From Candidatus Omnitrophota bacterium (GTDB taxonomy: Bacteria > Omnitrophota > Gorgyraeia > Duberdicusellales > 4484-171), in the NCBI GenBank assembly GCA_021735655.1, contig JAIPGM010000005.1:45461-109460 (forward strand): DNA of 64,000 nt, given 5' to 3'. Each line of letters starts with the position of its first letter. Positions within the stretch are counted from its first letter, which is position 1. Both the position numbers and the translations under genes were made by a program. The notes beneath the pieces were generated by a model. That model was not told the origin of the DNA. It made no database searches and saw nothing but the letters and a program-made list of their open reading frames with translations. Shown piece by piece: positions 3,044 to 61,085 of the stretch.

Positions 3044-3052
3044 GGACTAAGG

Positions 3053-4228
3053 TTATTTCCCTAAGTTAATCGCTCTGACCTTTACAACACCTTCAATCTT
3101 AGAAAGAGCTTTTATAGTCTCCTCCTTAGGTTCATCTGAAGCATCGATAATCGTACAAGCATAGCCGGCTTTACTCTTATTTAACATCTCAACGATATTA
3201 ATATTGGCTTTAGCTAAAATCGTTGAAACCTGACCAACCATATTCGGAATATCTTTATTCATAACTATCAACCGGTGACTAGAATTTTGCTCTAATTTAC
3301 AGTCAGGAAAATTAACTGAATTCTTAATAACCCCCCGCTCAATGAAATTACGCAACTGCTTAACAACCATTACTGCGCAATTAGTTTCGGCCTCTTGGGT
3401 TGAAGCACCAAGATGAGGTATGGCTATTACCTTATCCATGTTAAGTAGTTCATCATCAGGAAAATCAGTTACATATCTCTCAACTATACCGTCTTTGATT
3501 GCTTTAGCTAAATCATCATTGTTTACTATTCCACCACGGGAAAGATTTAAAATCCTGACACCTTTTTTCATCCGAGAAAACTTCTCACTATCAACCATTC
3601 CTTTAGTTGCATCAGTCAAAGGCGTGTGCAGCGAAATATAATCTGCTTCAGCCATAAGTGCATCTAAACCATTAGCTCGTTTTACCTGTCTTGAAAGACC
3701 CCAAGCCGACTCAACCGAGATAAACGGATCATAGCCAACAACCTCCATACCCAAATCTAAAGCAGCATTGGCCACCATAACCCCGATTTTACCTAAGCCA
3801 ACAATACCGAGAGTTTTGCCCATAATCTCAAAACCGGCAAAATCTTTCTTATTCTTTTCTACCGAGGTCGGAACTTCAGTTCCCTTTCCCTTAAGTGATT
3901 CAGAAAAGGCAATACCCTTAGAGATATCCCTTGAAGCTAGCAGCAATCCGGCTATAGTCAACTCTTTTACGGCGTTAGCATTGGCTCCCGGAGTATTAAA
4001 AACAACCACCCCTCTTTCTGAGCACTTATCAATCGAAATATTGTTGGTTCCGGCTCCAGCCCGACCCACCGCAAGAAGAGATTTCGGTAACTCCATATCA
4101 TGCATCTTAAAGCTTCGGAGGATTATTGCTTCGGGATTAGTAACTTCAGTACCAATCTCATATTGATCAAGCGGAAAAAGGGCTAAGCCCTCTGTTGAAA
4201 TTTTATCTAGTTTCATTACCTTATACAT
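3053..4228 (-). CDS. serA: D-3-phosphoglycerate dehydrogenase (2-hydroxyacid dehydrogenase with C-terminal ACT domain)
   Basis: NAD-binding motif GLGKIGVMVANAALDLGMEVVGYDPF. Catalytic His/Glu region (IPHLGASTQEA). C-terminal ACT-like region. The longer ORF to 4318 would overlap serC. An AGGAGG sits just before the ATGATG at 4228. Confidence 0.85.
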   Translation of the reverse strand: MYKVMKLDKISTEGLALFPLDQYEIGTEVTNPEAIILRSFKMHDMELPKSLLAVGRAGAGTNNISIDKCSERGVVVFNTPGANANAVKELTIAGLLLASRDISKGIAFSESLKGKGTEVPTSVEKNKKDFAGFEIMGKTLGIVGLGKIGVMVANAALDLGMEVVGYDPFISVESAWGLSRQVKRANGLDALMAEADYISLHTPLTDATKGMVDSEKFSRMKKGVRILNLSRGGIVNNDDLAKAIKDGIVERYVTDFPDDELLNMDKVIAIPHLGASTQEAETNCAVMVVKQLRNFIERGVIKNSVNFPDCKLEQNSSHRLIVMNKDIPNMVGQVSTILAKANINIVEMLNKSKAGYACTIIDASDEPKEETIKALSKIEGVVKVRAINLGK

Positions 4229-4247
4229 CATATCCTCCTTTAGTTGC

Positions 4248-5330
4248 TTATCGGTTTGTTTTTTCGAATTCTTCCATAAGTTCAACAAGTTTTTTAACCC
4301 CTTCAACCGGCATGGCATTGTAAATACTAGCTCGCATGCCGCCGACAGTACGGTGTCCTTTCAAAGTCTTAAAACCTTTAGCTGAAGCCTCCTCGATGAA
4401 TTTCGCATCTAGCTCCTTATTCCCGGTAACAAAAGGGACATTCATCAAAGAACGGTTTTCTTTTTTAACCGGACTGCTGAAAAGTTTTGACTGATCTAAA
4501 TAGCTATAGAGAATTTCTGCTTTTTCACGATTGAGCTTTTCGATTGCCGCCAGTCCTCCTTTTCCCTTAATCCAGGCAAAAACTAACCCGGCTATATAGA
4601 TTGAATAGCAGGGCGGTGTATTGAACATCGAACCGGCGTCAAGATGAGTTTTGTAATTAAGCATCGCCGGAATACTGTCTGGAGCCTGGCCTACTAAATC
4701 TTCACGGATGATAACCAAGGTAACACCGGCTGGTCCGATATTTTTCTGAGCTCCGGCAAAGATAACTCCAAATTTTGAAACATCAATTGGCTCAGACAAA
4801 ATATTAGAAGACATATCGGCGATTAAAGGAACTGCCCCTGTATTAGGGATCTTTTCATAAACTGTTCCGTAAATCGTATTGTTAGTTGCGATATAGAAAT
4901 AGTCAGCGTCTTTAGAAAAATCATCAGAATTAAGTTCCGGGATATAAGTAAAATTCTTATCTTCGGAACTGGCAACAACCTTAACCGCCCCCTGTTTCTT
5001 AGCTTCGGCTATTGCTTTCTTGGTCCATTGGCCGGTATGCACATAGTCGGCTTTTTTATTTTTGACCATTAAGTTCAAGGGAATCATCGAGAACTGTAAA
5101 CTTGCCCCGCCTTGCAAAAACAAAACCTTATAGTTATCCGGAATAGCCATGATTTCTCGTAGGGTAGCTTCGGCCGTCTCGATAATACCTTTAAACTCCT
5201 TGCCGCGATGAGAAAGTTCCATTACACTCATACCACTTCCTTGATAATTAAACATCTCTGCGGCAGCTTTCTTCAAAACTTCCTCTGGCAAAACTGCTGG
5301 TCCAGCACTAAAATTGTATACCCTCTCCAT
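4248..5330 (-). CDS. serC: Phosphoserine aminotransferase
   Basis: N-terminus MERVYNFSAGPAVLPEEVL is typical of SerC. PLP-fold length of 360 aa. Immediately followed by serA. Confidence 0.9.
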   Translation of the reverse strand: MERVYNFSAGPAVLPEEVLKKAAAEMFNYQGSGMSVMELSHRGKEFKGIIETAEATLREIMAIPDNYKVLFLQGGASLQFSMIPLNLMVKNKKADYVHTGQWTKKAIAEAKKQGAVKVVASSEDKNFTYIPELNSDDFSKDADYFYIATNNTIYGTVYEKIPNTGAVPLIADMSSNILSEPIDVSKFGVIFAGAQKNIGPAGVTLVIIREDLVGQAPDSIPAMLNYKTHLDAGSMFNTPPCYSIYIAGLVFAWIKGKGGLAAIEKLNREKAEILYSYLDQSKLFSSPVKKENRSLMNVPFVTGNKELDAKFIEEASAKGFKTLKGHRTVGGMRASIYNAMPVEGVKKLVELMEEFEKTNR

Positions 5331-5332
5331 GG

Positions 5333-5950
5333 TTACCCCCCTTTAAGTGATGCGGCAACAAACCGCAAAGCATTAGTAAAATCCATATCTAAATACATAA
5401 TATTTTCTGGCACTATAATTTTAATCGCTGAAAAATTTAAAATACCACGCACCCCGGCTTTGATTAACTTATCGGCTACGGCCTGAGCTGAGCCTGCCGG
5501 AACAGCGATTATTGCCAACTCAATGTTTCGCTGTTTAATAATACTTTCTAATTGGTTATCGCCAAAAACATCGATAGCAGTGCGAATTCTTTCAATCTTA
5601 TTAATACTGCAATCAAACCCAGCCACAATTTCAAATCCATCCTCCTGAAACTTTTCATAATCTAGGAGAGCGCTCCCGAGACGTCCCAAGCCAACAATAC
5701 AGGCCTTGCGCTTCTGATTTAAATTAAGCTTACGCCCCAACTCTTGCTTTAAACCGCTAACTTCGTAGCCTTTTCGAGTGTAACCGGTAAGGCCTAAAGA
5801 GCTAATATCTTTACGCACCGTATATTCAGTAGCACCAATAGCTTTAGCCAGATTCAGAGAAGATACAAAATCAACTCCTTGCTTTTCTAAGGTGTTTAAA
5901 TATCCAAAAATCTTACAAATTCGCTCAAGACTATTATCTGATAAACTCAT
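5333..5950 (-). CDS. rex: Redox-sensing transcriptional repressor Rex
   Basis: N-terminal winged-helix region (YTVRKDISSLG) and a C-terminal Rossmann/CoA-binding motif CIVGLGRLGSAL. Length 205 aa. Lies 2 nt upstream of serC. Confidence 0.85.
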   Translation of the reverse strand: MSLSDNSLERICKIFGYLNTLEKQGVDFVSSLNLAKAIGATEYTVRKDISSLGLTGYTRKGYEVSGLKQELGRKLNLNQKRKACIVGLGRLGSALLDYEKFQEDGFEIVAGFDCSINKIERIRTAIDVFGDNQLESIIKQRNIELAIIAVPAGSAQAVADKLIKAGVRGILNFSAIKIIVPENIMYLDMDFTNALRFVAASLKGG

Positions 5951-5973
5951 ATATGTTCCTTAACCTTATTTAA

Positions 5974-5987
5974 GTGAAATAATTCAC
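5974..5987. promoter_or_regulatory. Candidate Rex operator (GTGAA-N4-TTCAC) upstream of rex-serC-serA
   Basis: AAGTGAAATAATTCACTA matches the Rex consensus TTGTGAA-N4-TTCACAA. It lies 24 nt upstream of the rex start. Confidence 0.55.
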
Positions 5988-6107
5988 TATTATAGCTAAT
6001 TTATACCCTATATTACCCTGAATGTCAAGATATTTTATGGTATTTTTTAGGCTAACTAATAAATGTATATTTTTCAATCGATTATCAGTATGATTCCTAT
6101 AATATTA

Positions 6108-6121
6108 GTGAAATTTTTCAC
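6108..6121. promoter_or_regulatory. Second candidate Rex operator (GTGAAATTTTTCAC)
   Basis: Second GTGAA-N4-TTCAC palindrome in the same intergenic region. Confidence 0.45.
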
Positions 6122-6144
6122 CCCATTATCAAAAAAAGGGGCGA

Positions 6145-7551
6145 TTATTGCCGGCCAGACAAAAATACAGTTTCGTCTTTTGCCGGAATACTGACTTTAA
6201 TATTGTGCTTTTTCAGGTTAGTTCTTAATACCTCAGACTGCTCTTCGTCACCATGAACAATAAAAACCTTCTTTAACTTACCTTGGCATTTTTTAACATA
6301 TTCGACCAGACCATTTTTATCCGAATGTGAACTAAAAGCATTTAAAGTAACTACTTCGGCATTTAATTTATAAGGATGACCAAAGATCTTAACTTCCGGG
6401 TTTCTTTCAACAATTCTTCGGCCTAAGGTATTTTTAGCCATATAGCCAATTGCAATTATGGTGTTGTGTGGATTTTCAATATTGTTTTTTAAATGGTGAA
6501 GTATTCGACCATTTTCGCACATTCCGGAAGCTGATATTATTATCATCGGGCTTTTCTTTTCATTAAGCTTCTTTGATTTGTTGACATCAGTTATATAGGT
6601 AATGCTGCCATAACCTAAAGGATCCTCTTCTCTTTGAAAAGCCTGCTGAGTGATATCATCGAAATACTGCCAATTTTCCCGAAATACTTTAGTCAAATTC
6701 ACCGCCAGGGGACTATCAACATAAATTGGAATCTTTTTTATCTTTTTACGCTTTATCAACTCACTGATAAAAAATACAATTAACTGTGTTCTTTCTAAAG
6801 CAAAAGAAGGGATGATAATTTTACCGCCCCGCTTAATCGTACGATTTACAGCAGCAGCCAGCTCTTCCTCAGCATCTTCGATACTTGAGTGACTTCTCCC
6901 ACCATAGGTACTTTCAATTATAAGGTAATCTATATCTTTGGGAACTTCCGGATTTCTAAGTAAGGGCATGCCATAGCGGCCTAGGTCTACGGCATAAGCT
7001 ATGCGCATATTGCCATGAGTAGTTTTAATATCAAGGGTTGGTACAGTTGAACCAAGAATATGCCCGGCTTCAAAAAAAGTTAAATCTATCTCTCTGGCCA
7101 AAGGAAATTTTTGATGATATTCCAAAGATCTAATATATTTAAGTGACTTCTCAGCATCTTTTTTAGTATAAAGTGGTTCCCTTGGCGGGAGATGTTTACG
7201 ACGGTTAATCTTATTTACATAACGAACATCTTCTTCCTGGACATAACCACTATCAGCAAGCATGTAATGCAATAATTTCTTAGTGACCGGAGTAGCAAAT
7301 ACATGTGAACGATAGCCGTTTTTTATTAAAGTCGGGATATTACCACAATGATCGATATGAGCGTGGGAGACCACGCAGGCCTTTAAGCTTTGTGGGTTAA
7401 AGGAAAACTTTGAATTAACTTGGTAGGTTTCATCCCGACGACCATGGAAAAGGCCGCAATCAAGCAATATACTGGAATGATCTGTAGATACAAGATGCTG
7501 CGAGCCGGTAACTGTACGAGCTCCGCCGCAGAATTTAATCGTTACTGTCAA
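6145..7551 (-). CDS. Metallo-beta-lactamase fold hydrolase, beta-CASP RNA-metabolising family
   Basis: HAHIDHCG (HxHxDH) motif, with further His/Asp motifs and a beta-CASP-like C-terminal half. 468 aa. Confidence 0.7.
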   Translation of the reverse strand: MTVTIKFCGGARTVTGSQHLVSTDHSSILLDCGLFHGRRDETYQVNSKFSFNPQSLKACVVSHAHIDHCGNIPTLIKNGYRSHVFATPVTKKLLHYMLADSGYVQEEDVRYVNKINRRKHLPPREPLYTKKDAEKSLKYIRSLEYHQKFPLAREIDLTFFEAGHILGSTVPTLDIKTTHGNMRIAYAVDLGRYGMPLLRNPEVPKDIDYLIIESTYGGRSHSSIEDAEEELAAAVNRTIKRGGKIIIPSFALERTQLIVFFISELIKRKKIKKIPIYVDSPLAVNLTKVFRENWQYFDDITQQAFQREEDPLGYGSITYITDVNKSKKLNEKKSPMIIISASGMCENGRILHHLKNNIENPHNTIIAIGYMAKNTLGRRIVERNPEVKIFGHPYKLNAEVVTLNAFSSHSDKNGLVEYVKKCQGKLKKVFIVHGDEEQSEVLRTNLKKHNIKVSIPAKDETVFLSGRQ

Positions 7552-48261: not shown

Positions 48262-50010
48262 TTAAAAACTAACTTTGTAAGTAACCGATCCGCCAAGTTC
48301 GTAAAAGTCTTCTTTAAGCTGAGTTTCTAAATCAACCAAAAGAGTGGTATTTTTCTTGTTGAAGAATTCAAAACGGGAACCGACATTAAAGCTTGAGGGT
48401 GCCGGTCGGTAGCCTGAAGTTTCAAAAGAAGCCCCACCGCCCTCAAAACTGGCTAAAGACTGCTGTTTTTCATTCACCACACTGTAGAAATAACGAAAAC
48501 GAAGCTCGGGAGTGAACAGCATCTTCTCGCTCTCAAAAACCTTACTCAACCTAAGACCTCCGCCCAGCTGTAAAGTTTGGTAATTCTGAGACTCAACGCT
48601 GAGATTCAGCGCTCCGGCTCCAGTCTCAGTATAATCATCGAGCTCGAGATTAGTGTAGCTTAAAGCTAAAAGCGGAATGATCTCGAAATTCTTCTTTTTC
48701 AACTTATAGCCGCCTTCCAGGTAAGCTGAGAGCTGCTGGCCATCGTAATCAGCATTAGCCGTCCTTTCGATAGAACCGACAGTTACCTTTCTCGAATTAT
48801 TATATTCACTGTAGCCGTAAGTCAGCACTGCATCAAACAGATAAGGCTTATCCGGATGGCTATATTCTCCGTAAAGGCCGGTCTGATAACTTGTTATCCG
48901 AGTGCGCTCTTCGTTATCTTTTGACCTGATCTTACCTTCGCTAAACCCTTGGTCTATACCCAAGCGTAAAGAATTATTCAAAAACCCGTGGTCAAAGCCG
49001 ATAACATTACCCCAAAGCTTAGCCCGGTAACCCTTACTTGCACCACGCTCACCCTGCCGGGCATAGCCACCATAAGACTGAAACCAGATATCGTTATTAA
49101 AAGAATCCTCTAATGAGTCTTCCTCAAGGCTATCTTCCTCGATCTTTGAATCTTGTAAACGCAATACCGTGGTCCTGACAAATTTATCCAGGGAACCGTT
49201 TGAGGTATTGATTACTCCCCTGTTAGCAGAAAGGCCCATGTCGTTCTCGGCCGAAGCTACGCCACCACCAGATAAAGCTTCGAGAGTATTAAGAATCGTG
49301 GTCATGTCCGAAGAAGGATTGCTTATATTATCGAGAACCCGACCGACAGCAGCTGAATTAGAGCTGGAAGCCTGGCTTTCAAACCCAGAGGTTGACCGGT
49401 CAGCAGTTAAAACCAAGTTGCCTCCGGAATTTGACGCGCTAAATGACACCCGAGAGTTACTTGAGGTAACTGTAGTCGGAGCATTCCCTATTCCTGAACC
49501 ATTAGTATCGATAATAGTAAAGGTTGCATTTGACGGTATATAGATATCATTGCTAACTGTAACCGCCACTGTACTTGCTGTATTTACCACTGCTGCGGCA
49601 CCAGAAGTTATCCTGCCTGAGGTTGAAGGCGTATCAACGGTCAGGTTAAGGGTAGTCCCTGATCCTTGAGTATAAATGCCGGTACCGCCAAGAGTAAGAG
49701 TATTGGCTCCCAAGCCCAAACTGCCGGCATTATCTAAAGTAAGGTTTCCGGTAATTGTGCGGCTGCCAGTAAGATTTAAAGTTCCGCCGTCTCCTGCCGA
49801 ATCTACAGTAGTAGTTACGGCCGCCAGGTTATGCCCTAGAAAAAGTGTACCCTCCCCGGGCAGACGTCTGACTGCGGCTCGATTCGCTATGAATTCCGCA
49901 TAGAAGTCACCAGACCCAGCAAAAATCACGCCAGAATACGCCTGATTCCGACGGATTCCGAGGATCCGAAACAAAGCCCTGCCTTTGCCCTTGAAGCTCA
50001 AGGGTGCCAA
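48262..50010 (-). pseudogene. Autotransporter-like outer-membrane protein (Gly/Thr/Ser-rich passenger + C-terminal beta-barrel ending in F); N-terminus lacks a signal peptide, possibly 5'-truncated next to the IS
   Basis: C-terminal ~280 aa has alternating amphipathic beta strands and a terminal aromatic. Passenger has TLNLTG repeats. First 60 aa are non-hydrophobic and lie in the higher-GC DNA adjoining the transposase. Confidence 0.5.
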
Positions 50011-50139: not shown

Positions 50140-51295
50140 TTGTTGTAGAATGGACACTTACTCAAAACAACACTTTTTGCCATGAAAGGAGCTTTTGTAT
50201 CATGAACCACACCCAATCTTATACCATAAACGGCTGTATATTCCAAGAGTTTTTACTGCTTCTGGGCAGGGTTGTCCACAGTGACCTGATCCGGCAGATG
50301 GAGTACCTGAAAGTGGAGAATGAGGTTCTGCGGACCAAATGCCCGAAACGGATAACCACAAGCCCGGCCGAGAAACGTAAGCTCATCAAATACGGCCTTG
50401 CCTGCAGGGGCAGAATAAAAGGCATTATATCCATCGTAAGCTATTCTACCTTCAGGCGCTGGGTAAATGGCGATATCCGCAATAAATATAAGCCTTCCAA
50501 GCAAGGCACGCCCAGAAAGACCACACAGGAAATAATAGACCTTATAGTACGCCTTGCCCGGGAAAACTGCGACTGGGGCTATGGCCGGATAATGGGCGAG
50601 TTAAAGAAACTAAACATCATCAGACTGTCCCGGAATACCATAAAGGCCATAATGCGCCAGAACGGCCTTGATCCGGCACCAATAAGGGCCCATGACTCAT
50701 GGGATGCCTATATAAAGCGCCATTTCGAAACCTTATGGGCTTGTGACTTCTTTACCAAGACCATCTGGACAGCCATGGGGCCCAAGCTATTCCATGTATT
50801 ATTCTTCTTGAATATCAGAACCCGGAAGGTCCATATAGCCGGTATAACAGAAAAACCTAAAAAGGAATGGGTGATGGAAGCGTCAAAGACGGTATCGTTT
50901 CTATTCAAAGATAAGACCAAGAAGCTCCTTATTCGAGACGGTGATGCTAAATTCCCGAAAGAGTTCAATAGCCTTTTCAAAGACTGTAATACAAAAGTCA
51001 AAAAGATACCGCACCGGTCACCGAATCTTAACCCTTATGCCGAAGGCTTCGTGGGAACCATAAAAAGGGAATGCACGGATCACTTCTTCGTGTTCGGCGA
51101 ACGTCACTTCGAATACCTTGTCCGGGAATACGTCAAATACTATAATACCAAACGTCCGCATTCCGGCCGGGATAACCGGCCCCTTGAATATCATTCGGAG
51201 AAATCAACCGGCAAGCTCAAATGCGACTCACGCCTGGGTGGGATGATTAAGCATTATTATTGGGGGTAACGGAAGGTCACAGTAACTCATCCTCA
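50140..51295 (+). mobile_element. IS element (IS481/IS3-like, single DDE transposase ORF); ends approximate
   Basis: Transposase ORF with a local rise in GC relative to flanks. Terminal inverted repeats could not be defined by eye. Confidence 0.4.
50202..51269 (+). CDS. DDE transposase with N-terminal HTH/leucine-zipper and rve integrase core domain
   Basis: AAAGGAG RBS. rve-type motifs (..WACDFF.., RDGDAKF, NTKRPHSG). 355 aa. Codon usage and GC differ from neighbours. Confidence 0.8.
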   Translation: MNHTQSYTINGCIFQEFLLLLGRVVHSDLIRQMEYLKVENEVLRTKCPKRITTSPAEKRKLIKYGLACRGRIKGIISIVSYSTFRRWVNGDIRNKYKPSKQGTPRKTTQEIIDLIVRLARENCDWGYGRIMGELKKLNIIRLSRNTIKAIMRQNGLDPAPIRAHDSWDAYIKRHFETLWACDFFTKTIWTAMGPKLFHVLFFLNIRTRKVHIAGITEKPKKEWVMEASKTVSFLFKDKTKKLLIRDGDAKFPKEFNSLFKDCNTKVKKIPHRSPNLNPYAEGFVGTIKRECTDHFFVFGERHFEYLVREYVKYYNTKRPHSGRDNRPLEYHSEKSTGKLKCDSRLGGMIKHYYWG

Positions 51296-52101
51296 TTAAT
51301 GTAACGAAATATAGCAGTGTCATTCGAAGCTTTCATTGCGTATTCGTTTTCTAATCGATATCGTGCCACACACTGGAGAAAAGAACCAATGTCATGAAGA
51401 TGGCGAACTTGATCCCATGAATCCAACTTTAAATCAATGCCATAACCAGGCTTTCTAACAATATGAGCAATGCTGTGTCTAATCGAATCCTTCACGTATT
51501 CTCCGGCACTCACATTATTAGTATTTTGATCATGAAGAAAAATTCTATTGGCTGTAAAACGAGTTATAGTTTCACGCATATACTCTAACTCTCGAGGCCA
51601 ATTACCAACAAGATTATTAATATAAGCAACGGCCACACTTTCATCTGCGCTGGGATATACCAAACAATGCCAGAAAAAAAGAATTTGCAAATAAATATTA
51701 TTTGAGCTATTTGCTTCCCGATATAAACGGGCTAACTGGATTTGCTCCGGTGTACTCAAAAGAGATATTGTATAGAATTCGTCCATGGATTCACTGGCAT
51801 TTATCGACCTTTTGACGGAAAAACGAATGTTAACCTTGTTTAGTTTAGCGTCTACCTGCGAACTTATCCCGGAGTGCGTTATAACCCGAGCATTATTAGC
51901 AAAGGTAAAAGCGGAAAGAAATTCAGTCATCAGCTCAAACATCTTCGGTTGGCTACTGCCCTTGGGAATCTTGCATACCAGATCGTCAGTTTCATTGCTC
52001 TTATAATGAGGCACATATTTAAAATCAACATCCTTATAACGAAAATAATATACATCCTTGCGGAAAGCTATCGATATGTCTACTCCGATTGCATAAATCA
52101 T
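51277..52101 (-). CDS. Hypothetical protein, fourth gene of the SIR2 operon
   Basis: 274-aa ORF, 34 nt after the preceding gene, same strand. No recognised motif. Confidence 0.45.
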   Translation of the reverse strand: MIYAIGVDISIAFRKDVYYFRYKDVDFKYVPHYKSNETDDLVCKIPKGSSQPKMFELMTEFLSAFTFANNARVITHSGISSQVDAKLNKVNIRFSVKRSINASESMDEFYTISLLSTPEQIQLARLYREANSSNNIYLQILFFWHCLVYPSADESVAVAYINNLVGNWPRELEYMRETITRFTANRIFLHDQNTNNVSAGEYVKDSIRHSIAHIVRKPGYGIDLKLDSWDQVRHLHDIGSFLQCVARYRLENEYAMKASNDTAIFRYINEDELL

Positions 52102-52135: not shown

Positions 52136-53029
52136 TTATTGTTCGATAGAAGGCTTTTTGGCTTTAAAATAGTTCAGTAATAAGTAATAACGCAGTGCCA
52201 ATTTTTTATCTCCGGCTTCTTTTCTTTTTTTGTATTCTGATTCCACAAATTTAGATGCTTGGCCAAGTCCTTCTTCAAATTTCTTTGCCTGTTCTGAGTT
52301 TTCATTTATACTTTGTAAGAATTCCTTACCGAGATAATCTAATATTGACACACCATCTAAATCCCGGACTATCATTTTTAGACAACTCGTTGCCATAACC
52401 TTGCACAGCTCGACATCCTCATTGGTTTGTGCGGGTAATTGCGGATGCTTATTTGCTAACGTCGCCAAATAATTTAACAGTTCCCGCCCGATAACTATTC
52501 GTGGATATTCCGCAATTTTGCTTTCCAATGCATATGCCTTATATAAGGCAAGTCCATAAATTTCGCCATTAACCAATTCAGTTCCCAAGCCCACTTCTAT
52601 ACCGGCTCGAAATGCCTTTTTCATTGCCAAAGATAAAACCATCATGCCTCCACACGCTAACAGTGTGCCAAAGACACCATTAATTGCATGTGAGTGATAT
52701 TTATCCGTATGCAGACAAACGTAAGCTTGAATACAATCTGAAAAACGTTGATGCTTCAAATTGCTTTTTAGCATTTCTTTGAATTGCTCCATTTTTTCCG
52801 GAGGCACTTTAACCGAAGGCTCCCTTTCTTCTGTATAAGCATCAAAGAAATCCTGGAATCCATTGCGCAAAGTTTCGACGAACATCGCTGTTTGTTTATG
52901 GGCTTCTACTAAGCGTGGATGATTATCTTCAAGGGATTGGCCTTCAAGCCCTTGAAAAGCTTCTTTCTGGCCTAAAATATCGATAAAAGCTACAAGATAA
53001 TAATAGTAATTTATGTTATCTTTTGCCAT
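52136..53029 (-). CDS. Nucleotide-cyclase/GGDEF-like palm-domain protein (third gene of the SIR2 operon)
   Basis: YLVAFIDILGQKEAF resembles the metal-binding strand FaDIvGFT of class III cyclases. FRAGIEVGLGTELVNGEIYG..AYALES resembles RiGIhtGpvvaGviG..VNtAsRlES. The central segment ACGGMMVLSL occupies the position of a GGDEF-like turn. Confidence 0.45.
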   Translation of the reverse strand: MAKDNINYYYYLVAFIDILGQKEAFQGLEGQSLEDNHPRLVEAHKQTAMFVETLRNGFQDFFDAYTEEREPSVKVPPEKMEQFKEMLKSNLKHQRFSDCIQAYVCLHTDKYHSHAINGVFGTLLACGGMMVLSLAMKKAFRAGIEVGLGTELVNGEIYGLALYKAYALESKIAEYPRIVIGRELLNYLATLANKHPQLPAQTNEDVELCKVMATSCLKMIVRDLDGVSILDYLGKEFLQSINENSEQAKKFEEGLGQASKFVESEYKKRKEAGDKKLALRYYLLLNYFKAKKPSIEQ

Positions 53030-53045
53030 AATACGTCTCAGCCCA

Positions 53046-55826
53046 CTACTTGTTATATTTCTTATAAATTTCTGTTAAAAACTCAAACCCTGCTCTAGCA
53101 TATTTATCACAAATAGAATTTGCAATTTCATTTTTAAAACCAGCTAAATAAATTTTTTCAACAATAGATTGAATATTTTCTTGCTTATACCACGGAATAC
53201 TTTTTTCTATCATTATTAAAAATACATTCCCTACGTCTTTTGGGTTAACGTCTGCTAATTTATCGAAATACTCAAGTAAGAATGAACTATGGTAACGCTC
53301 TTCTACATATTTAATTGACTGCTTCAACCAATCCACCTGCTCTGTTTGTAATTGATCAAGAAATACCGCGAGTAGATTCAAATCGGAAAGGATGTCTTTG
53401 TTTTTGTCTTCTTTTCCTTTTGTTCTGTTAAAACAATACCGCCAAAATTCAAATATTCTTTCCTTTTGGTCGCAATCTAATTGCGCATCCCTATGAGCCC
53501 AAAAAAGACTGATCACCTCTTCAATATCATTTGGGTCCCATTTTTCTAAAATATATTTAAACAAACTGTCTTGGCCATCTATAGTCTCTTGCCCCCTTAA
53601 GTAGGATATTGTTACATTTTCTACAATTCGTCTTTTCGCTTGATCGTTCGAAAATTTTGTATCAAGCGCACGCCTTAGATGACCGTTATCTTTTAATAGA
53701 TTGTAGATAACAGCATAAACGGTATTGACATAAGAATATCCTTGCATAGCGCATCGCCAATGCTTTTCTTCAGCAGGAAAGATATTATTAATATTCGAAG
53801 TAACCCAATTTTTCTGCAAATAATACAAATTAGGCAAATAAGCACCAGATAGGCTTGAGAATTCGAAGTTTCCTTCCTTTGTTCTTTCAATCTCCCGACT
53901 AAATAGTGGCGCTACTGTCTTCCAGAAATCCTCTTTTTCTTTTATACCTTTATCAGGCAATTTTTCGAAATCACGGTACCGCCTAAGGACATAACTTTTA
54001 AAACTCTCTAGCACATGACCCTTTGTGGTATTAATCGCTTCGGTAAGCGCGTCTTCATCTTTACCACTTGCTGTTGATTCTTGTTTATCAAGCAGGGTCC
54101 GAATAATATTGTCTATTCTCTTATAATTATTCTCAGTAAGATTCAAATCGTCATTCTGAATCCCATTCTTGATCAAATCCGAGATAGCCGCAGGAATCCA
54201 ACTTTTCTTAGGTTCAAGGGGAAACTGACTCTCCTTCTCTTTCCCGTCCCACAATACATCATCGCAGACGATAGCTTGACAAAAGTCTAAAATCTTGTCC
54301 CAATTAATCTCTTTTTTATCCCGCGCAAGTTCTTCAAACGCCTCTATTACATAATACCAATATTCGTAACTAGACTTCTTGAACTCAATGAGACAATTTT
54401 CAAAAAATCCCTGTTTTAGCTTAATCGCTTCTTTTAAAGACTGGCCTGCTTCTCGTATCGCAGTTTCTCCAAAGCGGTTTTTACCTTTGAAGTTACCAAG
54501 GAAAGTAATAATTTCGTTAATGCTTCCCTGTGCCAACAATTCACTAGCTGAAAATAGAGACTCATCCCCCCATGATACAGGTCCAATATAACTTAAGAAT
54601 TCTGGATGTTCCGGCTTATAATCAATCCCTTTAAAATATTTCTCCTCTACATCATTCGGTATTGAATATCCCGAAACTTTAATAGCATATAGCCATCGCC
54701 TGCGAAGTATCGCATCCAATTTTTCCTTATCAACATCTTTTCTCCAGTCCCCGGACAACTGAACAACATCATTCATCAATGAATTCTGAAGATCTTGAGA
54801 AAATTGTTTAAAGTGGCGTGTTATCAGCTTATACAGTTCGTGGTGATAATTACTTTCGAGGAAAATAGTTTTACCGGTATCGCGAATGATTTTTTCACTA
54901 GTGGTTTTGTATTTATCAAACAACTGTCCTGTAATATACAATGAAAAACGTCTAATAATATGCTTGTCTGACCTAAAGCATGATTCAATAATAGTAGACG
55001 CTTCCTGTGAGGACGCATAGGCAAGAAACACATCTCTTAATCCAGAAACTAAAATATGTCGATATTCATCTCTGCTTATATTCTGTTCGCTATCTTCGAT
55101 TGCTGGACGCCACATATAAGAATATGCGTCATCCTTTTCCGTCACAATATGCTCAATTTTCTTCTTAAGAATTTCGACAATTTCGGCACCATATTTTTCG
55201 CCCAAATGCGTAGCATTGATCTTAAATAATTCCTGCAAACTATGGGCACCAAGGCTATGCCGATTTTCAATCCTGATGAAGTCAAGAATGATTTCTATAA
55301 GTCGGCTAACTTTTTGTAACTCCTCTGGTTCTTTCAATAAGTTTGGCAAAAGGGTTTTGCCAATCTCCAGCATTACCATTGAGGCATCAAACTTACTGTC
55401 AAGCCAATCAGCAATAAGCTCAATATCTTTTATTTCCACGACATCTGACGGCAAGAGTGCCATGATTTTAACAAAAGACTGCCACGTACGCCAATTATCT
55501 GCTTTTTTGGTCTTATCATCGGGACGAGTCACCTCACGAATAATTGACATTAACTTTCGGACATGCTCTTTATTTCCAGATTTCGAGCATTCTTTGGATA
55601 CCTTTTCTAAATATGTCAAAGCAGGCCAATATGGAATTGAGAAGAAACCTTTGTTTTTTTCCGACTCTACTGGAGAAGGATTATTTGTTGAACCAAAATA
55701 ACCATGATCTTTAAGCAAAGTAAGATATTCAACCTTCGACAATTCATTAAAGACCTGTGCTCGGTATTCAGCCCCTTTTGCCATGTAATCTAAAAGACTT
55801 TTTTGCTCTGGAGTTATATTCGTCAT
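53046..55826 (-). CDS. Large (926 aa) all-alpha-helical repeat protein, second gene of the SIR2 operon; no NTPase motifs
   Basis: No Walker A/B. Helix-rich composition throughout. Start overlaps the SIR2 stop (ATGA). Confidence 0.5.
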   Translation of the reverse strand: MTNITPEQKSLLDYMAKGAEYRAQVFNELSKVEYLTLLKDHGYFGSTNNPSPVESEKNKGFFSIPYWPALTYLEKVSKECSKSGNKEHVRKLMSIIREVTRPDDKTKKADNWRTWQSFVKIMALLPSDVVEIKDIELIADWLDSKFDASMVMLEIGKTLLPNLLKEPEELQKVSRLIEIILDFIRIENRHSLGAHSLQELFKINATHLGEKYGAEIVEILKKKIEHIVTEKDDAYSYMWRPAIEDSEQNISRDEYRHILVSGLRDVFLAYASSQEASTIIESCFRSDKHIIRRFSLYITGQLFDKYKTTSEKIIRDTGKTIFLESNYHHELYKLITRHFKQFSQDLQNSLMNDVVQLSGDWRKDVDKEKLDAILRRRWLYAIKVSGYSIPNDVEEKYFKGIDYKPEHPEFLSYIGPVSWGDESLFSASELLAQGSINEIITFLGNFKGKNRFGETAIREAGQSLKEAIKLKQGFFENCLIEFKKSSYEYWYYVIEAFEELARDKKEINWDKILDFCQAIVCDDVLWDGKEKESQFPLEPKKSWIPAAISDLIKNGIQNDDLNLTENNYKRIDNIIRTLLDKQESTASGKDEDALTEAINTTKGHVLESFKSYVLRRYRDFEKLPDKGIKEKEDFWKTVAPLFSREIERTKEGNFEFSSLSGAYLPNLYYLQKNWVTSNINNIFPAEEKHWRCAMQGYSYVNTVYAVIYNLLKDNGHLRRALDTKFSNDQAKRRIVENVTISYLRGQETIDGQDSLFKYILEKWDPNDIEEVISLFWAHRDAQLDCDQKERIFEFWRYCFNRTKGKEDKNKDILSDLNLLAVFLDQLQTEQVDWLKQSIKYVEERYHSSFLLEYFDKLADVNPKDVGNVFLIMIEKSIPWYKQENIQSIVEKIYLAGFKNEIANSICDKYARAGFEFLTEIYKKYNK

Positions 55827-56812
55827 TTGTTTAATAACCGCCTTATGACATCTTTTTCTTCTTCAAAATTAGGCTTATTGACTTTAGCTTTTAGAACAGC
55901 TGCCCATTTAATAATGATCTCTTCCAAATGAACGTGTCCTTTTTTGTCGATGTTATAGTCAATCAATTTTATGCCACAATGTCTTTCAAAATATCCCTTA
56001 AGATGCTTATAGGCAGCGTTATCCCTGCTCATACGTGGATATAGCCAAAAATGCCTTGGTTCTTCAACCCTCGGGGAATTGCTTTTTCTAACAATGAACT
56101 CCAATATTTCTTCTTCTTCCAGTCCATATCCAATAAACAAGACAATCTTCCGCGAAAACAAATCATTTAAAAAATCTATAACAAATCTATTCATATAATG
56201 ATCCATATAATCTCTGGTGGTCATAATCATGGTTTCTTTGCTTTTTACGCTTCCATGAAGATGAATAACCGAGCCTGGCTGATCTAGTCGCGCAGATGTT
56301 AAATCCTCTTTCCTGAAAAATACAGAAGTAGGAGAGGTAATTCCAGAGTTTCCCAGAGAACTGTCATCACCTTTTGAACTTAATATTTTATTATCAGCGA
56401 GCTTATCAAGGCAATCATCATAATTAGTCGTTACAAAAACAGTCCCTATCGAATACAAAGCATCGTATATCGCCGTTTTTACCGCTATTTCTTTATCCTG
56501 AAAAATTAACCTTCCATAATCATAATCGATGCCTTTTGCTTTGTAGTTATCAAAAAAAATAGAGAGTTGAATCTTGGGGTTTAAGGCTAAGAGAGAAGAT
56601 TTTTCTGAATATTCGATGTGCCCTTCTTTATAGAGAATGTCAATCGCCCGTCTTCCAAGCTCAACCCATGAAGGGTACCCCAATAATCTAGATACTCCAT
56701 TGCCGACAAACAAAATTAATTTGCCGTTTTGAGCTGCGTCGATAATAGACGAATGATCTTCTATGTTGGGAATAATTCTTGACGCAGGATTTTTATCTTC
56801 TATCGTCATCAA
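55823..56812 (-). CDS. Stand-alone SIR2_2-family (defence-type sirtuin-like NADase) domain protein
   Basis: Motifs in the canonical order: KLILFVGNGVSR (GAGxS equivalent), VFVTTNYDDCLD, VIHLHGSV (catalytic His), IVLFIGYGLEE. 329 aa. Confidence 0.75.
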   Translation of the reverse strand: MMTIEDKNPASRIIPNIEDHSSIIDAAQNGKLILFVGNGVSRLLGYPSWVELGRRAIDILYKEGHIEYSEKSSLLALNPKIQLSIFFDNYKAKGIDYDYGRLIFQDKEIAVKTAIYDALYSIGTVFVTTNYDDCLDKLADNKILSSKGDDSSLGNSGITSPTSVFFRKEDLTSARLDQPGSVIHLHGSVKSKETMIMTTRDYMDHYMNRFVIDFLNDLFSRKIVLFIGYGLEEEEILEFIVRKSNSPRVEEPRHFWLYPRMSRDNAAYKHLKGYFERHCGIKLIDYNIDKKGHVHLEEIIIKWAAVLKAKVNKPNFEEEKDVIRRLLNK

Positions 56813-57157
56813 TAATACCCCCTAATATACGTTTCTAAATCTACCTCTCCGTCCAATACCTCTGCTTGATCCAAAACCTTTTTGACGGGTACAGTATATT
56901 CACCGGTCGGTTAGTTCCCCACTACCTGCTAACCCTTCTACCAACCTAATTTACCAACCCATGATTCTTACTGGTTAGTTATCTGGGCAGTTTTCAGGGT
57001 AGTCTTTTTAGGATATTCAAAATATTTGTTACTCATACATGACCTTTATAATATTACTTTCATAAAAAATGCCATAACCTGAATTCTATCGGGCTACGGC
57101 AAATCGCAATGGCAGGTCTTTTAGTCTAAAACTCTCGAGCAACCTTCGCCCATCAAA

Positions 57158-57931
57158 TTAGCACTTTAAACATTTTTCTTTTTTAGTCGACTGCTGTTTT
57201 GAATGTATTCGTTCCCGCGCCATCCGACAATACTCTGGAGAAATATCAATGCCGATATAATTTCGTTTAAGGTCCCTTGAAACAACGGCTGTCGTTCCCG
57301 AGCCCATAAAAGGATCAAGTACAATTTTAGCATTGGTTGATGATACAATTCTTTGAATCAAAGATACAGGAAATGGAGCAGGGTGCCCATTTTTCATTTC
57401 CTGCGTAAATTCCCAAACATCACCGTAGGCATTCGCTTTTTTTGCCAATTTGAAATCCGGTTTAGCTATCAAGTATATAACCTCATAAGTAGGCAAGAAA
57501 TACCCTGCGTTAAAATTAATTCCACCTTTTCTTTTCCAAACAATAATCTGGCGCACAGGAAATTTACTGACAATGTCATGCCGGTCTTGAAGCAAGCCAT
57601 TTTGTACCCGCCATTTATGATTATAAAAAATTGCTCCGTCATTTTTTATTAATCTATACATTTCATCGAGACATTTAATTTGCCATGACACATATTCTTC
57701 ATGAGGCATACAGTCATCATGATGACTGTATCCGTTAATCAAAGCGGCTCTCGACCATTTACCACCGCGACCATCTTTCATACCGTTTCCTGTAGAATTC
57801 TTAAGATTGTAAGGCGGAGATGTCACAGCCAAATCAATCGATTCGTCCGGCATTGCTTTCATTACTTCTAAACAATCACCGCAAATGATCTTATTCAGAT
57901 AATCCTTAGGAAATTTTAGTTTAGCACTCAT
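57158..57931 (-). CDS. DNA amino-methyltransferase, beta-class (motif IV SPPY N-terminal, motif I FMGSGTT C-terminal); N4-cytosine or N6-adenine
   Basis: LAVTSPPYNL near the N-terminus. DPFMGSGTTAVVS near the C-terminus. Confidence 0.8.
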   Translation of the reverse strand: MSAKLKFPKDYLNKIICGDCLEVMKAMPDESIDLAVTSPPYNLKNSTGNGMKDGRGGKWSRAALINGYSHHDDCMPHEEYVSWQIKCLDEMYRLIKNDGAIFYNHKWRVQNGLLQDRHDIVSKFPVRQIIVWKRKGGINFNAGYFLPTYEVIYLIAKPDFKLAKKANAYGDVWEFTQEMKNGHPAPFPVSLIQRIVSSTNAKIVLDPFMGSGTTAVVSRDLKRNYIGIDISPEYCRMARERIHSKQQSTKKEKCLKC

Positions 57932-57955
57932 TTCATTCTTTCGATAACAGGTTAA

Positions 57956-58762
57956 TCAAAACACCTCTTTAACATCATCATATAGATCCGACCACACGCC
58001 TTGCTTGAGCCGAAATTTTGTTCCGTGGTTATGTCCCGTTCGGGCGTCAAAATCAATCAACAAACTTCCTGCCTCTACACAGCACAAGAATTTCTCAAAT
58101 GAAAAACCAGATAGAACAGAAAGGTGTTGATAGCAAAAATACTCATGCCCGTCGTCAATTTTGGCCTCAGCGATAACGTAAAAACAATTCTTTATTTTTT
58201 CGCCAATCGCATACTTCAAATCTTCAAAGCCCCAATAAGGCTCCGGTGAAATCGCTCCCAAGCCAGCTCTTTTTTTAACAGAAGATAGCCATGCCTTGAT
58301 CTCAGGGTCTGCCATATCAGCCTTCTTTGAGTCAAATACGAACTTCAACTTTTTAGCAGTACGATCAACGACTACTGTAAATCCGCGATTTGTAAAACTA
58401 CTAGAGCTGGTGGTAGACCGAAAACTCATTTCAGTTTTGGGGTATTTAAACCCAGCCTGTTTATGTGGCCAACCATATTTTGGTAAAAGAATATTGCTTA
58501 CAATCCGAGCCGCTGTTGGCGATGGTTCAATGTGCTTTAATGTTATAAGCGAAGAAGAATGCGCTCGCTGTCCTTTAAGCTCCCATTCTCGAGCATTAGG
58601 AATCGGCAGATTGTTTTCTGTAATGCCAAGAAGAACTTCAAGCGTGTTGCCAACAGCGCCATCATTTCGAGTGTCTCGTGTTTGTTTTACGCTCTTATGC
58701 CACCCTTTCGATGCGATAGCTTTAATTTCCTTGATTAACTCATCCTTTGAAAATAATTTCAT
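57956..58762 (-). CDS. Type II restriction endonuclease, MvaI/BcnI-like
   Basis: Sandwiched between two MTase genes with 24- and 13-nt spacers. N-terminal pattern MKLFSKDEL..DGAVGNTLEVLLGI.ENN..EWELKG matches my recollection of this family. A candidate ExK (VIAEAK) follows acidic residues. Confidence 0.5.
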   Translation of the reverse strand: MKLFSKDELIKEIKAIASKGWHKSVKQTRDTRNDGAVGNTLEVLLGITENNLPIPNAREWELKGQRAHSSSLITLKHIEPSPTAARIVSNILLPKYGWPHKQAGFKYPKTEMSFRSTTSSSSFTNRGFTVVVDRTAKKLKFVFDSKKADMADPEIKAWLSSVKKRAGLGAISPEPYWGFEDLKYAIGEKIKNCFYVIAEAKIDDGHEYFCYQHLSVLSGFSFEKFLCCVEAGSLLIDFDARTGHNHGTKFRLKQGVWSDLYDDVKEVF

Positions 58763-58775
58763 AATCTCCCTTTCA

Positions 58776-59768
58776 CTAATACCTTTTTTGGGGCGGCTTC
58801 CAGAAATCTAAAAGATATTCAAAAGTTACACCCATTGTTATATAATTGCTTGGCCAGCCAAAAATACCAATGCCATTGACCACATTGGTACGATCCCATA
58901 TTATGACATTTCGTAATTCATAGCCTCTCTTACGGAGTTCCTCAATCAACGAAACGTGAATTGTAATGCGCCGGTTTTCCCACCACATATCCGGAACATT
59001 AATAACGCAATGTGCTTTCTCTCTAAGCAGAGGAAGTAACCCTTCAAAAATATCTCCCATTGCCGTCGTATAGGAATCAATAGCCATTGTGCCTAGATCA
59101 CGCACATCTTGAGAATATTGCTCAACTTTACCCAATTGCTTGTTGTTCCTGTCGCGTCGAGATTTGTTTTGACGGGATCTATTTAAAAGATTTGCGTAGG
59201 GCGGAGATGTCCAGATCAAACTTACAGTATTGGGGGAGAGATATTCTGAAATATTTCTGGCGTCATCCTGAATGGCCATCTGAGCACATGCATTAAACAG
59301 GTTAGGATTCTTTTGGAGCCGCTTAACACATAACTCAATGTATTTTTTTTGGAGATCGAACCCAACGGCATTTCGGTTCAAATCAGTTGCGGCAATAAGT
59401 GATGTTCCACTTCCAACAAACGGGTCAATAACCAATTGTCCCTGATGTGTGAATAATTCGATGACTTTTTTTGCGAGGGATATTGGAAAAGTTGCAGGAT
59501 GAACAGATTTATCTCTTATATCGCGAGTTTCATAAAAAAACTGCCAAACTCCTATTTGGGATTTAAGCCAGTCCTTGGGGCCCATGCAATTAATATGTGT
59601 ATGGCCACAATTACATAAACGCTCGTGCGCCATACCTAGCTTTGTGCCATATAAAGAATCGCCTTCAAAAACGGCCAAGGCTTTTTGCTCTGTTTTACTC
59701 TTATCATTGTGACCCTGATCAATAGATCTTTTGTCAACCGCGCTATGACCAAAACTTTGATTTCCCAT
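58776..59768 (-). CDS. Second DNA amino-methyltransferase (motif I DPFVGSGTS precedes motif IV SPPY)
   Basis: DPFVGSGTSLIAATDL at ~aa 113. IWTSPPYANL at ~aa 187. 330 aa. Confidence 0.8.
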   Translation of the reverse strand: MGNQSFGHSAVDKRSIDQGHNDKSKTEQKALAVFEGDSLYGTKLGMAHERLCNCGHTHINCMGPKDWLKSQIGVWQFFYETRDIRDKSVHPATFPISLAKKVIELFTHQGQLVIDPFVGSGTSLIAATDLNRNAVGFDLQKKYIELCVKRLQKNPNLFNACAQMAIQDDARNISEYLSPNTVSLIWTSPPYANLLNRSRQNKSRRDRNNKQLGKVEQYSQDVRDLGTMAIDSYTTAMGDIFEGLLPLLREKAHCVINVPDMWWENRRITIHVSLIEELRKRGYELRNVIIWDRTNVVNGIGIFGWPSNYITMGVTFEYLLDFWKPPQKRY

Positions 59769-59825: not shown

Positions 59826-60446
59826 TTAGATATTTCGAATCGTAGTAACTACAATACCCTGCACCTGAAAATCTCTAGTAACCACTATTGGCTTATGTTG
59901 TTTATTGCTCGAACACGGTTTCAAAACGACCGTATCTCCTGATGAATTATATTGTTTAACTGTAACCTCGTTGTCAACTAAAGCAATGATGACATCTCCT
60001 GTGTTTGCGGTTTCCTGTTTGCGCACGAGTAGGAAGTCACCATCTTCAATACCTTTCTGATTCATTGAGTCGCCTTTGGCTCTGACAAGAAAATATTTAT
60101 GCGGAAGTTGGGCTAATTTTGTTGAAACCGGAAACCACGATTCGATATTTTCTTCAGCTAAAATAGGAATACCACAGGCAACAGTACCGACAAGAGGCAC
60201 GCTGATTGTCTGAACATTATCACTGTTATTAATATCCATAACCAATCGCAAGGCCCCTGAAGGATTTCTACGCAACACTCCTTTAGAAATTAATTTGTTA
60301 ATCAATAGGGCAACAGAGCGAGGTGAACGATATCCTAAAGTCCCCATTAAGTCTCTTAATGAAGGGCATTTGCCAAAATTGACAAGAGCATTTCGGATGG
60401 CTTTAATGACAATCGCTTCTTTATCGGAAATCATTATATTGCTCAT
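59826..60446 (-). CDS. LexA/CI-like repressor with S24 peptidase domain (ORF-track extent 59826..60527; start more likely at 60446 or 60434)
   Basis: N-terminal HTH (LVNFGKCPSLRDLMGTLGYRSPRSVALLINKLISKG). VACG cleavage-site analogue. S24 Ser/Lys region (AKGDSMNQ..). A perfect palindrome lies at the start. Confidence 0.7.
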   Translation of the reverse strand: MSNIMISDKEAIVIKAIRNALVNFGKCPSLRDLMGTLGYRSPRSVALLINKLISKGVLRRNPSGALRLVMDINNSDNVQTISVPLVGTVACGIPILAEENIESWFPVSTKLAQLPHKYFLVRAKGDSMNQKGIEDGDFLLVRKQETANTGDVIIALVDNEVTVKQYNSSGDTVVLKPCSSNKQHKPIVVTRDFQVQGIVVTTIRNI

Positions 60447-60463
60447 GTATACAATTGTATACA
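60446..60463. promoter_or_regulatory. Perfect 18-bp palindrome TGTATACAATTGTATACA at the repressor start (SOS-box-like operator candidate)
   Basis: Exact palindrome with the half-site pattern TGTATAC..GTATACA, reminiscent of CTGT-N8-ACAG LexA boxes. It overlaps or abuts the repressor start codon. Confidence 0.5.
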
Positions 60464-61085
60464 ACATGGATAACTTTGTCAATGATTTATTTTCTTGATG
60501 ATGAAAAGGCAACGCTGATAATAACATATGTGTTTTTCAGAACATCAAAACTTGTTCAGGTTTTACTGACTTTCAAAGCCACGGCTTAACAGGACAAAAC
60601 TACATTTATACTGACATTCGCATGTCAATGATGACAATTTTGCCCTGTTTTGACCCTGTTTTGAGCCATTTTGGGCCCTTTTTACTGACATATTGGCATT
60701 GGAATGTCAGGGTGTACCGGCCGTTTTGCCCTCAAATCGTGAAATAATTCCAATCATAACATCAATAACTACAATATATTACGCATAAATAGTCTTTTCC
60801 AAGATCATGATGCGAATGACAAAATTGTCCCTGACATCGTTTTTTGAAGTCAAAATCACTGACAAACTGCGCCTCGGCTGACCCTCGGCCCAGGCCCGCC
60901 CGGGAAGGACCCACAATAATAATGCGTGCGGAGGAGGGTGGCAAGGAGGCCAATCTCCACCCTCTGCCAAGGCGCATTTACTCCATTAGAAAGCCGTCAT
61001 TTCTAACAGAGTTTACCTGACAAAACCTTTGCGATGGAACAGCGTCCGAGATCATCGCTTGGGCTTCTCCGCATTATTTGACTTG

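Follow-up and report, generated by a model that had tools for sequence, protein, structure and literature searches.

A probable naturally split Dsr1-type SIR2 defence pair in a Candidatus Omnitrophota genome and its relatives in other phyla

The SIR2 and sensor genes

The locus described here lies in a 64,000-nucleotide (nt) stretch of DNA, called the window below, from a Candidatus Omnitrophota bacterium (NCBI GenBank assembly GCA_021735655.1, contig JAIPGM010000005.1, positions 45,461 to 109,460 of the forward strand). Two genes of the window, encoding a SIR2 protein of 328 amino acids (aa) and a 926-aa helical protein referred to here as the sensor, overlap at the sequence ATGA, which holds the stop codon of the former and the start codon of the latter (positions in Table 1). 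These genes line up in order with SIR2-sensor proteins made as a single chain, show translational coupling and co-occur across phyla, and they very probably form a naturally split, two-gene SIR2 defence pair of the Dsr1 type, and not a DSR2. An earlier interpretation of the letters alone (the sequence-only reading) had described the long helical protein and its coupling to a separate SIR2 gene, both of which are confirmed here, and had proposed that the pair might be a split DSR2: the split defence-associated sirtuin stands, while the type to which it was assigned does not.

The SIR2 protein matches the Pfam family SIR2_2 (E 3e-20). The open reading frame (ORF) listed mechanically for it (55823..56812, 329 aa, the length given in the sequence-only reading) begins at a TTG codon; the next codon is the ATG at 56809, which gives the deposited length of 328 aa. 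The motifs GNGVS, TTNYD and HLHG (at residues 36, 127 and 183, respectively) align with the DSR2 motifs containing Asn133 and His171, and an H171A mutant of DSR2 is present in entries of the Protein Data Bank (PDB). With its catalytic Asn and His motifs intact, the protein is a predicted NADase.

The sensor, which comes from a metagenome-assembled genome, is annotated at NCBI as 'hypothetical protein K9L86_05460' according to an exact-sequence look-up. The AlphaFold2 model, built with 51 homologues, is entirely helical, with a mean pLDDT of 90.4. Confidence is low at a single hinge (residues 415-422), and the pTM of 0.55 is in keeping with two lobes of uncertain mutual orientation on either side of this hinge. 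No Pfam domain was matched at E<=1, not even DUF4020, with which the sequence-only reading had advised a comparison. The Walker A motif was absent from both proteins in a motif scan, no ATPase match was obtained for the pair in Pfam, NCBIfam or PADLOC, and no HerA model was matched in PADLOC. The earlier claim that the sensor has no P-loop and is thus unlikely to be a STAND or HerA ATPase partner is therefore borne out.

Several His-, Glu- and Asp-rich motifs of the sensor are conserved across its family, namely Y-x-WRPAIEDH-x-QN, HHE, PEHPEF and INT-x-KG (residues 237-249, 328-330, 405-410 and 598-603, respectively), and they are also kept in the distant clade that links the family to canonical Dsr1. 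Such motifs are unusual for a pure repeat scaffold and could form an interface or a metal site.

Assignment to the Dsr1 type

Both proteins match, in the same order, one and the same Dsr1 model of PADLOC, PDLC04166, which has 1227 positions: the SIR2 protein covers positions 9-283 (E 4e-55) and the sensor positions 310-1225 (E 5.7e-165). Neither protein matched a Dsr2 model in PADLOC, and no match of the sensor to DSR2 was found by sequence or by fold. The homologues of the sensor show three architectures: stand-alone proteins of ~916-975 aa, proteins fused to SIR2_2 (1227-1239 aa), and proteins fused to TIR (~1072-1115 aa). When the two window proteins were concatenated (1254 aa), they aligned with the SIR2-fused proteins from end to end in one BLAST high-scoring segment pair, with ~41% identity. 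In this alignment the junction of the pair lies within a helical linker, with no residues lost relative to the fused proteins. The window pair thus has the SIR2 module with intact motifs and the homologous helical sensor of ~900 residues that characterize the PDLC04166 subfamily, and departs from it in not being a single polypeptide.

Since defence islands pack unrelated systems tightly together, and a restriction-modification (R-M) system lies immediately upstream of the pair, the two genes might have been unrelated neighbours in one island. The collinearity with fused proteins refutes this explanation, which we consider extremely improbable: one Dsr1 model is matched collinearly by both proteins, fused relatives exist, and the two genes were found in overlapping adjacency in every locus examined.

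Conservation of the two-gene form

The co-occurrence of the sensor with SIR2, the absence of which would have refuted the sequence-only reading by its own terms, was followed from both genes. In all seven of the loci looked up for stand-alone relatives of the sensor (25-83% identity), an overlapping SIR2_2 gene lies upstream, and all seven lie in defence islands with type I R-M, BREX PglZ or MvaI/BcnI R-M genes. Look-ups made from the SIR2 side yielded the overlapping pair in two loci out of two, in Aeromonas and Nitrospira, which brings the overall count to nine out of nine. The chromosome of Aeromonas sp. 1805, which is complete (CP038515.1, locus L010), has a SIR2 gene for 309 aa overlapping a gene for 933 aa, the product of which is a full-length homologue of the window sensor (E 8e-95), and the pair of the Nitrospira genome encodes proteins of 334 and 934 aa. 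A split SIR2-sensor pair is also borne by the Vibrio coralliilyticus plasmid pOCN014. The pair of L010 (489-4743) adjoins two tyrosine-recombinase genes and a 513-aa gene, surroundings which suggest that it is carried on an integrative element.

Of 11 split loci, 10 show an overlap of 1-17 nt between the end of the SIR2 gene and the beginning of the sensor gene, and the protein junction is the same in each. That the lengths of the overlaps vary while the protein junction is constant argues against a single recent frameshift. This bears on whether the window pair might be a recently broken fused Dsr1-type gene (by a frameshift or a nonsense mutation), a non-functional pseudogene or an assembly error. 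The two ORFs are indeed exactly collinear with the fused proteins, with a gapless join, and their source is a metagenome-assembled genome; the same junction, however, recurs with its varied overlaps in independent genomes of several phyla, including complete chromosomes and plasmids such as those of Aeromonas and Vibrio mentioned above. Both ORFs are intact at sensor identities ranging from 93% down to 25%, the sensor has an ATG of its own, and the stand-alone form is the majority architecture. The comparative data effectively refute this explanation, and we give it a very small probability.

A profile search of 1.84 billion representatives yielded 7,201 members of the sensor family, 3,327 of them at E<=1e-30. 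Among the best 150 of the 7,201 representatives, 117 are stand-alone, 13 are fused to TIR and 11 to SIR2. In a neighbour-joining tree of the sensor region, built without bootstrapping, the deep branches are stand-alone forms, and the SIR2 fusions lie inside one clade, where they are mixed with stand-alone forms. The TIR fusions occupy at least six separate positions in this tree, including some whose sensors are 60-66% identical to that of the window. No sensor carried by a phage was found in 50,697 phage records. Judging from these sequence comparisons, the split is real, old, conserved and common in this branch of the Dsr1-type family.

Modular effectors of the sensor family

A scan of reference genomes with a 20-sequence alignment gave 80 loci from many bacterial phyla and one archaeon, which were classed with purpose-built hidden Markov models. 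SIR2-split loci accounted for 22, TIR-fused loci for 8 and SIR2-fused loci for 2; for 4 loci no upstream sequence was available, and the other 44 fell into none of these classes. When 41 of these 44 were scanned with Pfam, 22 had tightly coupled upstream ORFs and 19 had N-terminal fusions. The coupled upstream ORFs matched the pPIWI-associated nuclease pP_pnuc_1 (9), PIN_12 (5) and SIR2_2 (2), and the fusions matched PIN_12 (8) and pP_pnuc_1, HEPN_Apea and PIN_3 (one each). The two-gene and fused forms therefore exist for several effector types, and the sensor, an alpha-solenoid with two lobes, belongs to a large modular family, in which the effector may be a SIR2, a TIR, a PIN, a pPIWI-type nuclease or a HEPN domain.

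A fused member of the PDLC04166 subfamily occurs on the virulence plasmid pXO1 of Bacillus anthracis str. Sterne (L093, 1981-5943), where it is a 1320-aa 'SIR2 family protein', WP_001074482.1 (E 1e-140). The family of this protein was detected by tblastn on 116 Bacillus plasmid records.

A second split site and a candidate adaptor

A second split form was observed in L025-L034, L037 and L039, which are mostly proteobacterial and largely from Burkholderiales. The first ORF (~507 aa) consists here of SIR2 and the first ~185 sensor residues (PDLC04166 positions 12-474), and the second (~756 aa) of the remaining sensor (positions 499-1223); in Curvibacter (L027), for example, the ORFs lie at 2523-4043 and 4007-6274. 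Proteins of 502-508 aa among the SIR2 homologues fit this form. The second split site is independent of that of the window and lies ~185 residues further in, and its existence implies that the continuity of the chain is dispensable.

Residues 275-328 of the SIR2 protein align with the TIR-sensor linker of the TIR-fused relatives. When the concatenated pair was compared by blastp with two of these proteins, P0003 and P0013, the alignments began at SIR2 residue 275/276, and P0003 itself matches PDLC04166 from position 267. According to these alignments, the ~54-residue tail of the SIR2 protein is evolutionarily part of the sensor module. The first ORF of the second split form likewise carries sensor residues, so that each of the fissions lies inside the sensor module, part of which stays attached to the effector chain. 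This sensor-derived piece probably acts as a docking adaptor by which the two subunits are joined.

Relation to canonical Dsr1 and Avs7

Dsr1 depletes NAD+ on infection (10.1101/2021.12.14.472415). Its sensor is bilobed and is common to Avs7 and to proteins with NADase, nuclease and kinase effectors (Nature 2026, PMC13581612; preprint PMC12803255). The trigger of both EcDsr1 and SeAvs7 is the major capsid protein of the phage (PMC13581612; preprint PMC12803255), and they are the only members for which the capsid trigger and the cell-death phenotype are established (PMC13581612). The window sensor is connected with these proteins transitively and not directly. The NCBIfam Dsr1 equivalog NF041818 has 1263 positions and a cut-off of 1400 bits, far above the 19.9 bits obtained with the window SIR2 protein. 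The link is made by nine distantly related proteins (E 1e-12 to 1e-27 against the window sensor), each of which matches NF041818 at positions ~587-844, which fall in its sensor region, with E-values down to 1e-18, and two of the nine also match other PADLOC Dsr1 models. An hhalign comparison of the profile of this distant clade with the window family extended over 909 columns (probability 100%, E 2e-100). On the strength of these profile alignments, the window sensor is, by way of these relatives, a homologue of the canonical Dsr1 sensor.

Proposed mode of action

In the mechanism proposed for the window pair, the SIR2 protein and the sensor would be made in a fixed ratio and would form a stable constitutive complex, held together by the SIR2 C-terminal tail. 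In the uninfected cell the NADase would be kept inactive by auto-inhibition. On infection the solenoid would bind a phage protein that is conserved, the best candidate being a structural one such as the major capsid protein, and a conformational change or oligomerisation would then activate SIR2, with the result that NAD+ would be hydrolysed and phage replication blocked.

By analogy with EcDsr1 and SeAvs7, the major capsid protein may be the specific trigger of the window sensor, a proposal we make tentatively. The major capsid protein is the sole trigger defined by experiment in the Dsr1/Avs7 superfamily, and a solenoid fold suits the binding of a protein. It is also quite conceivable that the SIR2-sensor logic is retained and that the sensor recognises another target, which might be a nucleic-acid structure, a different protein of the phage or a host factor that has been perturbed. 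The window subfamily is related to EcDsr1 only distantly and through intermediates, the related scaffold Avs4, found among the fold matches of the sensor (8dgf), binds the portal, and alternative activators exist for other families (PMC13581612).

Some of the data weigh against the assignment to a two-gene Dsr1-type system that works in this way. For the split members, complex formation, NADase activity and trigger are all inferred. SIR2 and sensor co-diverge only moderately (Pearson 0.55, Spearman 0.28, calculated from non-independent pairs). The fold matches of the sensor, in which the sequence-only reading would have been contradicted by a globular enzyme, are generic solenoids, and no Avs7 or Dsr1 structure for comparison was found in PDB profile searches with the sensor. 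The window sensor has no direct match to NF041818 at E<=1; since the link to the canonical protein rests on intermediates covering ~250 sensor positions, its ligand may differ from that of EcDsr1. Lastly, a third gene recurs next to the pair, and it is not explained by a two-gene model.

The downstream cyclase-fold gene

This third gene, which the sequence-only reading does not mention, encodes a 297-aa protein with a class III cyclase fold and two invariant Asp residues. No cyclase model was matched when 43 members of its family were scanned with Pfam, so the likeness to cyclases is at the level of the fold only. The gene follows the sensor gene by 6-20 nt on the same strand in four loci, namely the window, L007 and L098, where the pair is split, and L095, where SIR2 is fused to the sensor. 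It is more conserved than its neighbour, with 75-82% identity across these loci versus 48-61% for the sensor. A further 81 sensor loci lack it, among them L001-L004 and the 83%-identical relative L006, and in L096/L097 it occurs beside IS elements without any sensor. A 359-aa gene located downstream in L003 was considered as a homologue of the 297-aa gene and was rejected.

The cyclase-fold protein might be a functional partner in a three-component system, in which it would, for example, make a nucleotide signal that switches on or strengthens the response, or would serve as a second sensor or a regulator. Its close linkage in loci spanning the split and SIR2-fused forms, its higher conservation, its fold with the two invariant Asp residues and the lack of any minus-strand terminator-like site in a scan from the SIR2 gene to the 274-aa gene beyond it are in keeping with this idea. 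In contrast, the gene is missing from most sensor loci and can stand without a sensor, no cyclic-nucleotide receptor domain was detected in SIR2 or the sensor with Pfam, PADLOC or NCBIfam, and the gene might equally be an independent single-gene defence hitch-hiking in the island. We therefore think a three-component system unlikely. Because the linkage is clade-specific and the gene is absent from 81 loci and occurs alone in others, it is either an accessory particular to this clade or a single-gene system that hitch-hikes.

A bolder extension, which we hold to be doubtful, is that the unit in this clade is a three-gene cassette of SIR2, sensor and a cyclase-fold protein of a kind not described before, the last of which would link a capsid-sensing NADase to nucleotide signalling or would regulate it; more generally, the stand-alone solenoids of the Dsr1/Avs7 type would be free-standing pattern-recognition subunits capturing interchangeable effectors via a short effector-borne adaptor.

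Defence-island setting

The features of the locus are listed in Table 1. The R-M module directly upstream of the pair encodes a 257-aa N6_N4 methyltransferase, a 268-aa endonuclease of the MvaI/BcnI family and another N6_N4 methyltransferase, of 330 aa. In L007 the order is repeated, with endonuclease, methyltransferase, SIR2, sensor and cyclase-like genes. The island is bordered on one side by a gene for a LexA-like repressor (Peptidase_S24 and a LexA DNA-binding domain) and on the other by an IS transposase gene (rve_3), beyond which lies an autotransporter gene. The GC content falls from ~0.44 to ~0.36 across the island. The 274-aa gene located after the cyclase-fold gene shows a weak Pfam match to MauJ (E 1.5e-8); it was considered as a partner in the system and was rejected, no homologue being present in any of the relative loci compared. 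In the intergenic region upstream of the SIR2 gene, weak sigma-70-like matches were found, none of which exceeded the shuffled expectation.

Table 1. Features of the locus, with their positions in the window
Feature	Position	Strand	Remarks
SIR2 effector gene	55823..56809	minus	328 aa from ATG, deposited as MCF7908298.1 (exact match)
C-terminal ~54 residues (275-328) of the SIR2 protein, candidate adaptor/linker segment	55826..55987	minus	blastp against TIR-fused relatives
ATGA overlap, SIR2 stop/sensor start	55823-55826	minus	window sequence
Sensor gene	53046..55826	minus	926 aa, ATG start, MCF7908297.1, homologous to the C-terminal sensor region of Dsr1-type proteins
Class III nucleotidyl-cyclase-fold gene	52136..53029	minus	297 aa, 16 nt downstream of the sensor gene
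Upstream intergenic region	56810..57157	minus	348 nt, probable promoter region of the cassette
MauJ-like gene	51277-52101	minus	274 aa
IS transposase gene (rve_3)	50202-51269	plus	island border
Autotransporter gene	48262-50010		beyond the IS element
R-M module	57158-59768	minus	three genes
LexA-like repressor gene	59826-60527	minus	island border

Comparison with known SIR2 systems

The fused Dsr1 proteins of the PDLC04166 subfamily, such as WP_001074482.1, resemble the window pair in having an N-terminal SIR2 followed by a helical sensor of ~920 residues, and in their defence-island setting. They differ from it in that the window has two overlapping genes, cut ~50 residues into the sensor module, and in that a cyclase-fold gene follows the sensor in the clade to which the window belongs. 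Canonical Dsr1 (EcDsr1, WP_029488749.1; NF041818) and Avs7 share with the window a bilobed helical sensor and exchangeable effectors, which in Dsr1 include a SIR2 NADase, whereas the window sensor is not recognised directly by NF041818, as mentioned above.

In DSR2 of Bacillus subtilis (PDB 8k98, 8wkt), a SIR2 NADase is controlled by a large helical domain which binds a phage structural protein, the tail tube, and the logic proposed for the window would be similar. The SIR2 domain of DSR2 is the closest solved sequence relative of the window SIR2 protein (phmmer E 6.7e-8, 8wkt/8k98), residues 20-252 of the latter aligning with residues 30-243 of DSR2, but this similarity is at the domain level only, and no match of the window sensor to the C-terminal domain of DSR2 that binds the tail tube was found. 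As in SIR2-HerA, the SIR2/pAgo system SPARSA and Thoeris ThsA/ThsB, a SIR2 NADase stands beside a separate controlling partner in the window; unlike in those systems, this partner has no P-loop, HerA ATPase, PIWI, TIR or SLOG module. It also differs from the Avs/STAND NTPases in having no central P-loop NTPase (NACHT/NB-ARC).

The family and its logic are already known. In PMC13581612, split proteins appear only in the methods, where they are noted in passing, so that split forms have been seen before without being described there. The dominance of the two-gene form in this subfamily, the two fission sites, the effector-borne adaptor and the recurrent cyclase-fold neighbour were not found described in the literature searched.

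Implications for the Dsr1-type family

Definitions of Dsr1 based on a single gene do not cover a two-gene form, and the sensor is not recognised by current annotation. Because the sensor is unannotated and is yet mostly encoded by a gene of its own, as the stand-alone majority among the best 150 representatives illustrates, Dsr1-type immunity may have been under-counted in surveys. The natural split also provides a ready system for studying how a signal passes from a sensor to an NADase and for swapping effectors, with the ~54-residue tail as the candidate adaptor and the TIR relatives with closely similar sensors as the source of alternatives. Together with the parallel split and fused forms involving PIN and nuclease effectors, the two fission sites illustrate how modular pattern-recognition receptors evolve in bacteria.

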